The notes under the pieces were generated by a model, which ran no database searches, was not told where the DNA came from, and worked only from the letters and a program-made list of their open reading frames with translations. A stretch of DNA of 64,000 bases from Escherichia coli (GTDB taxonomy: Bacteria > Pseudomonadota > Gammaproteobacteria > Enterobacterales > Enterobacteriaceae): assembly GCF_001677475.2 (NCBI RefSeq), contig NZ_CP015229.1, one strand, 5' to 3'. The translations under genes were made by a program, and so were the position numbers. This document shows positions 21,185 through 21,218 of this stretch, piece after piece (position 1 is the stretch's first letter; each line of letters begins with the position of its first letter).

Positions 21185-21190
21185 TAAAAT

Positions 21191-21211
21191 GCCTCGCCCG
21201 GTGGGCGAGGC
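21191..21211. terminator. hairpin between convergent fhuB and hemL
   Basis: GCCTCGCCC ggt GGGCGAGGC flanked by A/T runs on both sides. Confidence 0.65.
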
Positions 21212-21218
21212 AAAATCA

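Follow-up and report, generated by a model that had tools for sequence, protein, structure and literature searches.

A 34-bp hairpin spacer between the convergent genes fhuB and hemL of Escherichia coli: a probable hemL terminator that alternates with a REP cluster

A terminator in the short spacer of a convergent gene pair is textbook knowledge, and differences between E. coli strains in REP and BIME occupancy have been documented as well (PMC3333891; bioRxiv 10.64898/2026.03.23.713779). A REP is found in about 30% of the convergent spacers of E. coli, and strains differ in where their REPs are located (bioRxiv 10.64898/2026.03.23.713779). The number of REPs, which are characterized by a GTAG tetranucleotide, ranges from 286 to 574 depending on the lineage and is highest in a subtree that includes clade A, and tandem amplification of BIMEs has been described by Ton-Hoang et al. 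(PMC3333891). Both termination and the blocking of mRNA decay have been reported as activities of these repeats (PMC3333891; bioRxiv 10.64898/2026.03.23.713779).

Here we analysed 64,000 nucleotides of an E. coli genome (NCBI RefSeq assembly GCF_001677475.2, contig NZ_CP015229.1; referred to as the window), in which fhuB and hemL converge on a very short spacer. Our literature search for REPs at this junction returned unrelated papers only. With the intrinsic terminators of Enterobacteriaceae the spacer shares a GC-rich 10-bp stem, a short loop, a U-run directly 3' of the stem, a location near a stop codon and covariation of the paired bases, while it differs from them in that the U-tract is interrupted, extends over the stop codon of the convergent partner and is weaker in most E. 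coli variants. As in bidirectional convergent terminators, one palindrome is common to two converging units within a very short spacer; unlike these, the hairpin has no T-run on its fhuB side and is flanked by A-runs on both sides. The BIME-2 found in K-12 occupies the same convergent junction and probably has the same 3'-end role. REPs are, however, imperfect palindromes that carry a GTAG tag, occur in hundreds of copies and amplify in tandem, whereas the window hairpin is unique, perfect and unrelated to them in sequence. In other Enterobacteriaceae the fhuB-hemL junction is likewise variable, the gene pair being conserved while the spacer changes; compared with these junctions that of the window is minimal and contains neither an inserted repeat nor an inserted gene. 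In Salmonella enterica subsp. enterica the junction presumably accommodates the stf fimbrial operon.

The boundaries of the spacer follow from the list of open reading frames, the translations and the RefSeq annotation of matching E. coli records. fhuB (plus strand, 19202-21184, 660 amino acids) ends with a TAA stop codon at 21182-21184, and hemL (minus strand, 21219-22499, 426 amino acids, ending in RRVFAKL) with a TAA that reads TTA on the plus strand at 21219-21221. The stop-to-stop gap is thus 34 bp (21185-21218, TAAAATGCCTCGCCCGGTGGGCGAGGCAAAATCA) and is filled by one hairpin, in agreement with the preliminary description of this DNA. A spacer of identical length is annotated in strains ECCNB12-2, O104:H4, Seattle 1946, IAI39, O145 and HS. 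Folding yields a perfect palindrome at 21190-21212, TGCCTCGCCC-GGT-GGGCGAGGCA, with arms at 21190-21199 and 21203-21212 and a loop at 21200-21202. Its ten base pairs, eight of them G-C, close a three-nucleotide loop with a free energy of -19.8 kcal/mol on either strand. For the 66 nucleotides around the hairpin the fold z-scores are -4.2 (plus strand) and -5.5 (minus strand), none of 200 shuffled sequences folds as well, and the 21-nt hairpin core is present once in the 64-kb window compared with 0.00 copies expected by chance. The hairpin is genuine rather than a palindrome expected by chance. Its core, ATGCCTCGCCCGGTGGGCGAGGCAAAATCA, is invariant in all seven E. coli-type sequences that we aligned. 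A search of 19000-23500 with the Rfam 15 covariance models (E <= 1) gave no match, so the hairpin does not belong to a known RNA family. The list of open reading frames also contains a frame of 41 amino acids (21189-21314) that starts with an ATG inside the hairpin and runs antisense to hemL; it is without supporting evidence and we treat it as a mechanical ORF.

A terminator scan of the region 20500-22000 detects a terminator-like site on the minus strand only, TGCCTCGCCCACCGGGCGAGGCA TTTTATTAAC. The second site in the scan overlaps the first and represents another way of pairing the same hairpin, and there is no other strong site in the region. On the hemL transcript the stem starts 8 nt past the stop codon and is followed by TTTTATTAAC, in which six of the first eight bases are T. 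According to the scan and the T counts of the tail, the U-tract itself (5'-TTTTATTA-3' on the minus strand, 21182-21189) lies directly 3' of the stem and overlaps the fhuB stop codon. With a GC-rich stem and a loop inside the usual ranges of about 5-14 bp and 3-8 nt, a U-rich tract and a position just past the stop codon, the site has the properties of an intrinsic terminator for hemL. The spacer hairpin therefore looks like a Rho-independent terminator of hemL and would be, for fhuB, at best a hairpin without a U-tract. In the proposed mechanism the hemL transcript would fold into the GC-rich stem-loop followed by UUUUAUUA on the minus strand, leading to Rho-independent termination; we infer termination at this site from the sequence alone. 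We consider it likely that the spacer is a minimal 3'-end module of the convergent pair that comprises the hemL terminator and represents one of two old, mutually exclusive junction alleles.

The preliminary description had called the hairpin bidirectional, and a true bidirectional intrinsic terminator that ends both the fhuACDB and the hemL transcripts is the alternative that survives best, although we regard it as doubtful. The palindrome is perfect, so that both RNAs would form the same -19.8 kcal/mol stem, and it is the sole structured element in the spacer. Moreover, hairpins between convergent genes often serve both directions; a sequence-based study, as cited in a preprint (bioRxiv 10.64898/2026.03.23.713779), counted 306 such terminators. 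What speaks against this alternative is the sequence that follows the stem on the plus strand. In the fhuB direction the stem is followed by an A-rich tail (21213-21218, AAATCA, then the ATTAC of hemL) that contains no T-run: in the tail, AAATCATTAC, only three of the first eight bases (AAATCATT) are T and none of these are contiguous, compared with six of eight on the hemL side. A bidirectional design consists of an A-run upstream and a T-run downstream of the stem, whereas on the plus strand the fhuB-hemL stem is flanked by an A-run at either end, which is the layout of a one-way hemL terminator. Consistent with this, the scan reports no plus-strand site, and the hairpin between nlpE and yaeF in the same window does show the A-run/T-run design. 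As there is no T-run after the stem on the plus strand, fhuB has no canonical terminator here. The fhuACDB RNA would carry the same palindrome at its 3' end, without a U-tract; there the effect on RNA polymerase might at most be a pause or a weak stop, or the palindrome might shield the 3' end from exonucleases. The T-run is confined to the hemL side, and by its shape the hairpin is not a bidirectional one.

We then compared the junction with that of K-12, represented by AB1157, in which fhuB ends at 173444, hemL ends at 173602 and the spacer is 157 bp long. The alignment demonstrates that the K-12 junction is 123 bp longer than that of the window, and the expectation of a longer, REP-bearing junction in K-12 stands. 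Three REPs are found there, namely a decayed Y-type REP, a Z2-type REP (GCCCGATGCGACGCTGGCGCGTCTTATCGGGCCTAC) and a Y-type REP (GTAGGTCGGATAAGGCGTTCACGCCGCATCCGAC), named here by the usual types (PMC3333891). Parts of this spacer recur at a median of nine places in each E. coli genome. An internal direct repeat of 85 bp gives the spacer a BIME-2 layout, and the scan finds no terminator-like site in its 157 bp. While the coding flanks of the window and K-12 align as identical, the spacers share nothing, and the GCCTCGCC hairpin is absent from K-12. The earlier suggestion that the window lacks an element present in K-12 thus has to be modified, as the difference is not an indel. The hairpin and the BIME-2-type REP cluster are mutually exclusive alleles, and one replaces the other.

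To describe the distribution of the two alleles we used 5426 complete E. coli genomes. The 34-bp spacer is present in 3713 of these (about 68%), always at one place per genome, and a stricter 76-bp query across the hairpin junction matches 3684. The K-12 junction, at a coverage of at least 80%, is found in 1701 genomes (31%), at least 1557 of which are near-identical to K-12. The hairpin form is therefore the majority allele, and spacers of 33-38 bp occur in other genera, so the junction cannot be called unusually compact, as had been proposed; K-12 does not represent the typical state here. Other nearby convergent junctions of K-12 measure 46-48 bp. Some 12 of the 5426 genomes have neither allele. 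One of them is FDN-24 (NZ_CP158147.1, 560675-560680), in which a deletion of both 3' ends together with the junction fuses the truncated fhuB and hemL genes. Both are annotated as pseudogenes in this strain, and, if the deletion is not an assembly error, haem synthesis should be affected by the absence of hemL.

The hairpin allele is carried by O157:H7, O145, O104:H4, O111:H8, F11, Seattle 1946, IAI39, CE10 and HS, and the BIME allele by K-12 derivatives, BL21(DE3) and many small-genome isolates. Among the phylogroups covered, strains with the hairpin allele belong to A (HS), B1, B2, E and F. An equation of the BIME allele with phylogroup A was rejected, as HS, a phylogroup A strain, has the 34-bp allele. 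The seven hairpin-allele sequences are identical from ATGCC to AAAATCA; in the spacer and the stop codons, variation is limited to the three bases that follow the fhuB stop directly (TAAAA, TAGAA, TTGAA or TAGGA) and to the hemL stop codon, which is TAA or TGA. The variable bases (21186-21188) are part of the hemL U-tract and set its quality. The tract reads TTTTATTA in the window, O157:H7 and O145, and TTCAATTA, TCCTATTA or TTCTATTA elsewhere. The commonest E. coli variants are weaker, with four to five T in eight bases versus six in the window, whose version is the best among the variants seen. Full-length identical matches to the 34 bp of the window are found in O157:H7 genomes.

For a comparison across species we used the C-terminal half of FhuB as query. 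Among the 80 loci retrieved, fhuB and hemL are convergent neighbours in 77, and in these 77 Enterobacteriaceae species spacer length varies between 33 and 1174 bp (median 96 bp). It is filled by REP pairs in Citrobacter, Salmonella subspecies and others, by CCCTCTCCC/GGGAGAGGG elements in Enterobacter, Leclercia and Pseudocitrobacter, and by AAACGGCAA..TTGCCGTTT hairpins in Enterobacter. Hairpins of the type GCCTCGCC...GGCGAGGC are present at the same site in three Citrobacter species (TGTAAACGCCTCGCC..GGCGAGGCGAATGGA, 36 bp) and in Intestinirhabdus alba (CGTAAACGCCTCGCCCGCCGGGCGAGGCGTCAGAA, 35 bp), and in Kosakonia and Enterobacter sp. Bisph1 this hairpin recurs with U-A in place of G-C in the stem. 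In a cross-genus alignment of 12 sequences 94% of the cells pair, and four of the ten base pairs change on both sides, in a small sample in which two Kosakonia rows (of the CCCTCTCCC type) are one register off and may not be orthologous. The covariation score is not equalled in any of 500 shuffles, and pairing falls to 37-56% when the partner columns are shifted. In this alignment the stem has clearly been kept across genera by compensatory changes.

Within the genus, the BIME form occurs in all five non-coli Escherichia lineages sampled, namely E. albertii, E. whittamii, sp. E1V33, sp. MOD1-EC7003 and strain SCPM-O-B-8794. Identity between these lineages and the window is 91-94% around the junction, and their BIMEs measure 118, 157, 157, 162 and 440 bp. 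The left flank TTT(T/A)(T/C)CCATATAAC(G/A)GCCC and the right end ..TG(C/G)(T/G)GGA or ..GTTGGA are common to K-12 and four of the lineages; E. albertii has a different left flank and a right end that is merely similar (..GTGCAGGA). Ten complete E. albertii genomes were compared; each contains a BIME, of 117, 118, 210, 392 or 579 bp, and none of the ten has the hairpin allele. The length steps of about 92 bp fit a variation in tandem BIME copy number within one species, in line with the amplification described by Ton-Hoang et al. (PMC3333891).

Because the hairpin has orthologues outside the genus and the BIME is shared with other Escherichia lineages, both alleles are old. The orthologues in Citrobacter, Intestinirhabdus and Kosakonia would make the hairpin form older than Escherichia, while within E. 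coli either allele may have come first. E. coli may either have kept both for a long time as a polymorphism or have regained one by recombination or transfer between lineages. The flanks do not point to a source: K-12 and HS, which have different alleles, differ at three positions in 430 bp of fhuB and at two in the first 480 bp of hemL, and as these flanks are almost identical no donor is revealed. Over these stretches other Escherichia species diverge from K-12 and HS by about 5-6%. A recent import of either allele together with foreign flanks was not supported, since divergence among K-12, HS and the window amounts to only some 0.5-2% in the flanks, as far as the stop codons, compared with 5-8% for other Escherichia species. 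A diverged BIME sub-allele, about 93% identical to K-12, is represented by strain HCM-24C-3. Over a 200-bp junction query its identity to K-12 is 93.5%, and it is closer to the allele of Escherichia sp. MOD1-EC7003, with about seven differences in 157 bp as read by eye. The HemL protein of HCM-24C-3 has the same accession as that of the hairpin-allele strain ECCNB12-2. This pattern hints at an exchange of junction alleles between lineages. The more far-reaching possibility, that the junction is a very old two-allele polymorphism of hairpin and BIME, retained or exchanged time and again across Escherichia, appears unlikely to us.

The remaining explanations are weaker still. That the palindrome is a selectively neutral remnant with no function is highly improbable, given that the core is invariant while the adjoining spacer bases vary, that compensatory changes keep the stem across genera, and that its position and U-tract suit a terminator. 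We give hardly any credence to the idea that the compact junction is a recent deletion derivative of a strain that lost the REP cluster of K-12. The K-12 spacer is indeed 123 bp longer and the REP form is present in all five other Escherichia lineages sampled, but the K-12 spacer does not include the 34-bp sequence, so that no deletion of the K-12 form can yield the hairpin form. A recent deletion is further at odds with the hairpin being the majority E. coli allele, with its presence in phylogroups A, B1, B2, E and F and with the orthologous hairpins in Citrobacter and Intestinirhabdus. Least credible of all is a solitary or degenerate REP-type repeat: the hairpin is indeed GC-rich, palindromic and extragenic, and REPs occupy this site in other species, but the hairpin (GCCTCGCCC-N3-GGGCGAGGC) occurs once per genome in 3713 genomes, compared with a median of nine places for the K-12 REP segment, and it is perfect and has no adjoining GTAG/CTAC tetranucleotide. 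A search of the whole window for the Y and Z2 REP cores, these two types only, with up to three to four mismatches, found none.

The reading of the spacer as a hemL terminator module is of little importance by itself, as it describes an ordinary terminator in the commonest E. coli form of a variable junction. K-12 and HS, however, constitute a clean natural pair of alleles, a single unique hairpin versus a three-REP cluster between near-identical flanks, which could be used to measure the effect of a BIME on termination and mRNA stability at convergent genes. If selection maintains the polymorphism, for example through the stability of the hemL or fhu mRNA or through antisense read-through, the junction would amount to a natural experiment on REPs at 3' ends.

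In the remainder of the window the alignment with K-12 (151.5-218 kb) consists of collinear blocks of 96-98.4% identity with four interruptions at which K-12 has more DNA. One is the fhuB-hemL junction, with the 34-bp hairpin spacer in the window and the 157-bp BIME in K-12. Between hrpB and mrcB (window 12378-12389) K-12 has about 102 bp more, made up of paired CCCTCTCCC...GGGAGAGGG...GGGGTGAGGG palindromes, and the hrpB stop codon is TGA in the window and TAA in K-12. These palindromes are of the same type as the filler of the fhuB-hemL spacer in Enterobacter, Leclercia and Pseudocitrobacter. The K-12 element may correspond to 'Box C'; a search for a literature name of the CCCTCTCCC/GGGAGAGGG palindromes returned irrelevant papers only. 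Between yaeH and dapD (window 31828-31955) 128 bp replace 842 bp, and yaeI, which has 813 bp in K-12, is absent; yaeI is missing from E. coli HS too.

The fourth interruption lies between nlpE and yaeF, where the window has 29 bp (62849-62877, TTGAAAGCCGGAGCATTCTCCGGCTTTCA) and K-12 199 bp with a Y+Z2 BIME. The window hairpin at this site has a 12-bp stem with an A-run upstream and a T-run downstream, and such a hairpin is absent from K-12. Judged from this layout, it has the shape of a genuinely bidirectional terminator. The window allele is found in 521 of the 5426 genomes and the K-12 BIME allele in 1918, including O157:H7. In the same stretch K-12 thus has two BIME sites, while the search for Y and Z2 cores finds none in the window. 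The allele counts at nlpE-yaeF and fhuB-hemL, together with the BIME of O157:H7 at nlpE-yaeF, demonstrate that REP occupancy varies locus by locus, which fits the published range of 286-574 REPs (PMC3333891).

At the position of the K-12 yad operon the window contains a chaperone-usher fimbrial operon (1-5132, minus strand) with an usher (463-3054), a chaperone (3103-3861) and a subunit (3918-4496), all on the minus strand. The operon has only about 66% identity to K-12 htrE, and a megablast search against the 5426 complete E. coli genomes gave no match to it. Among complete RefSeq E. coli genomes the best identity to the window is 97.4% for 5133-24000 and 98.6% for the conserved core at 40000-62000, and none reaches 99%; strain ST2747 is among the best matches in the core region. 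These identities suggest that the window may derive from a deep-branching E. coli-like lineage that is absent among the complete RefSeq genomes. Matches above the Rfam gathering score are the HtrA 5' UTR thermometer (28461-28506), the t44 RNA (36628-36714) and the CssrA sRNA (37553-37662), all of which are expected features of degP and the map-rpsB region.
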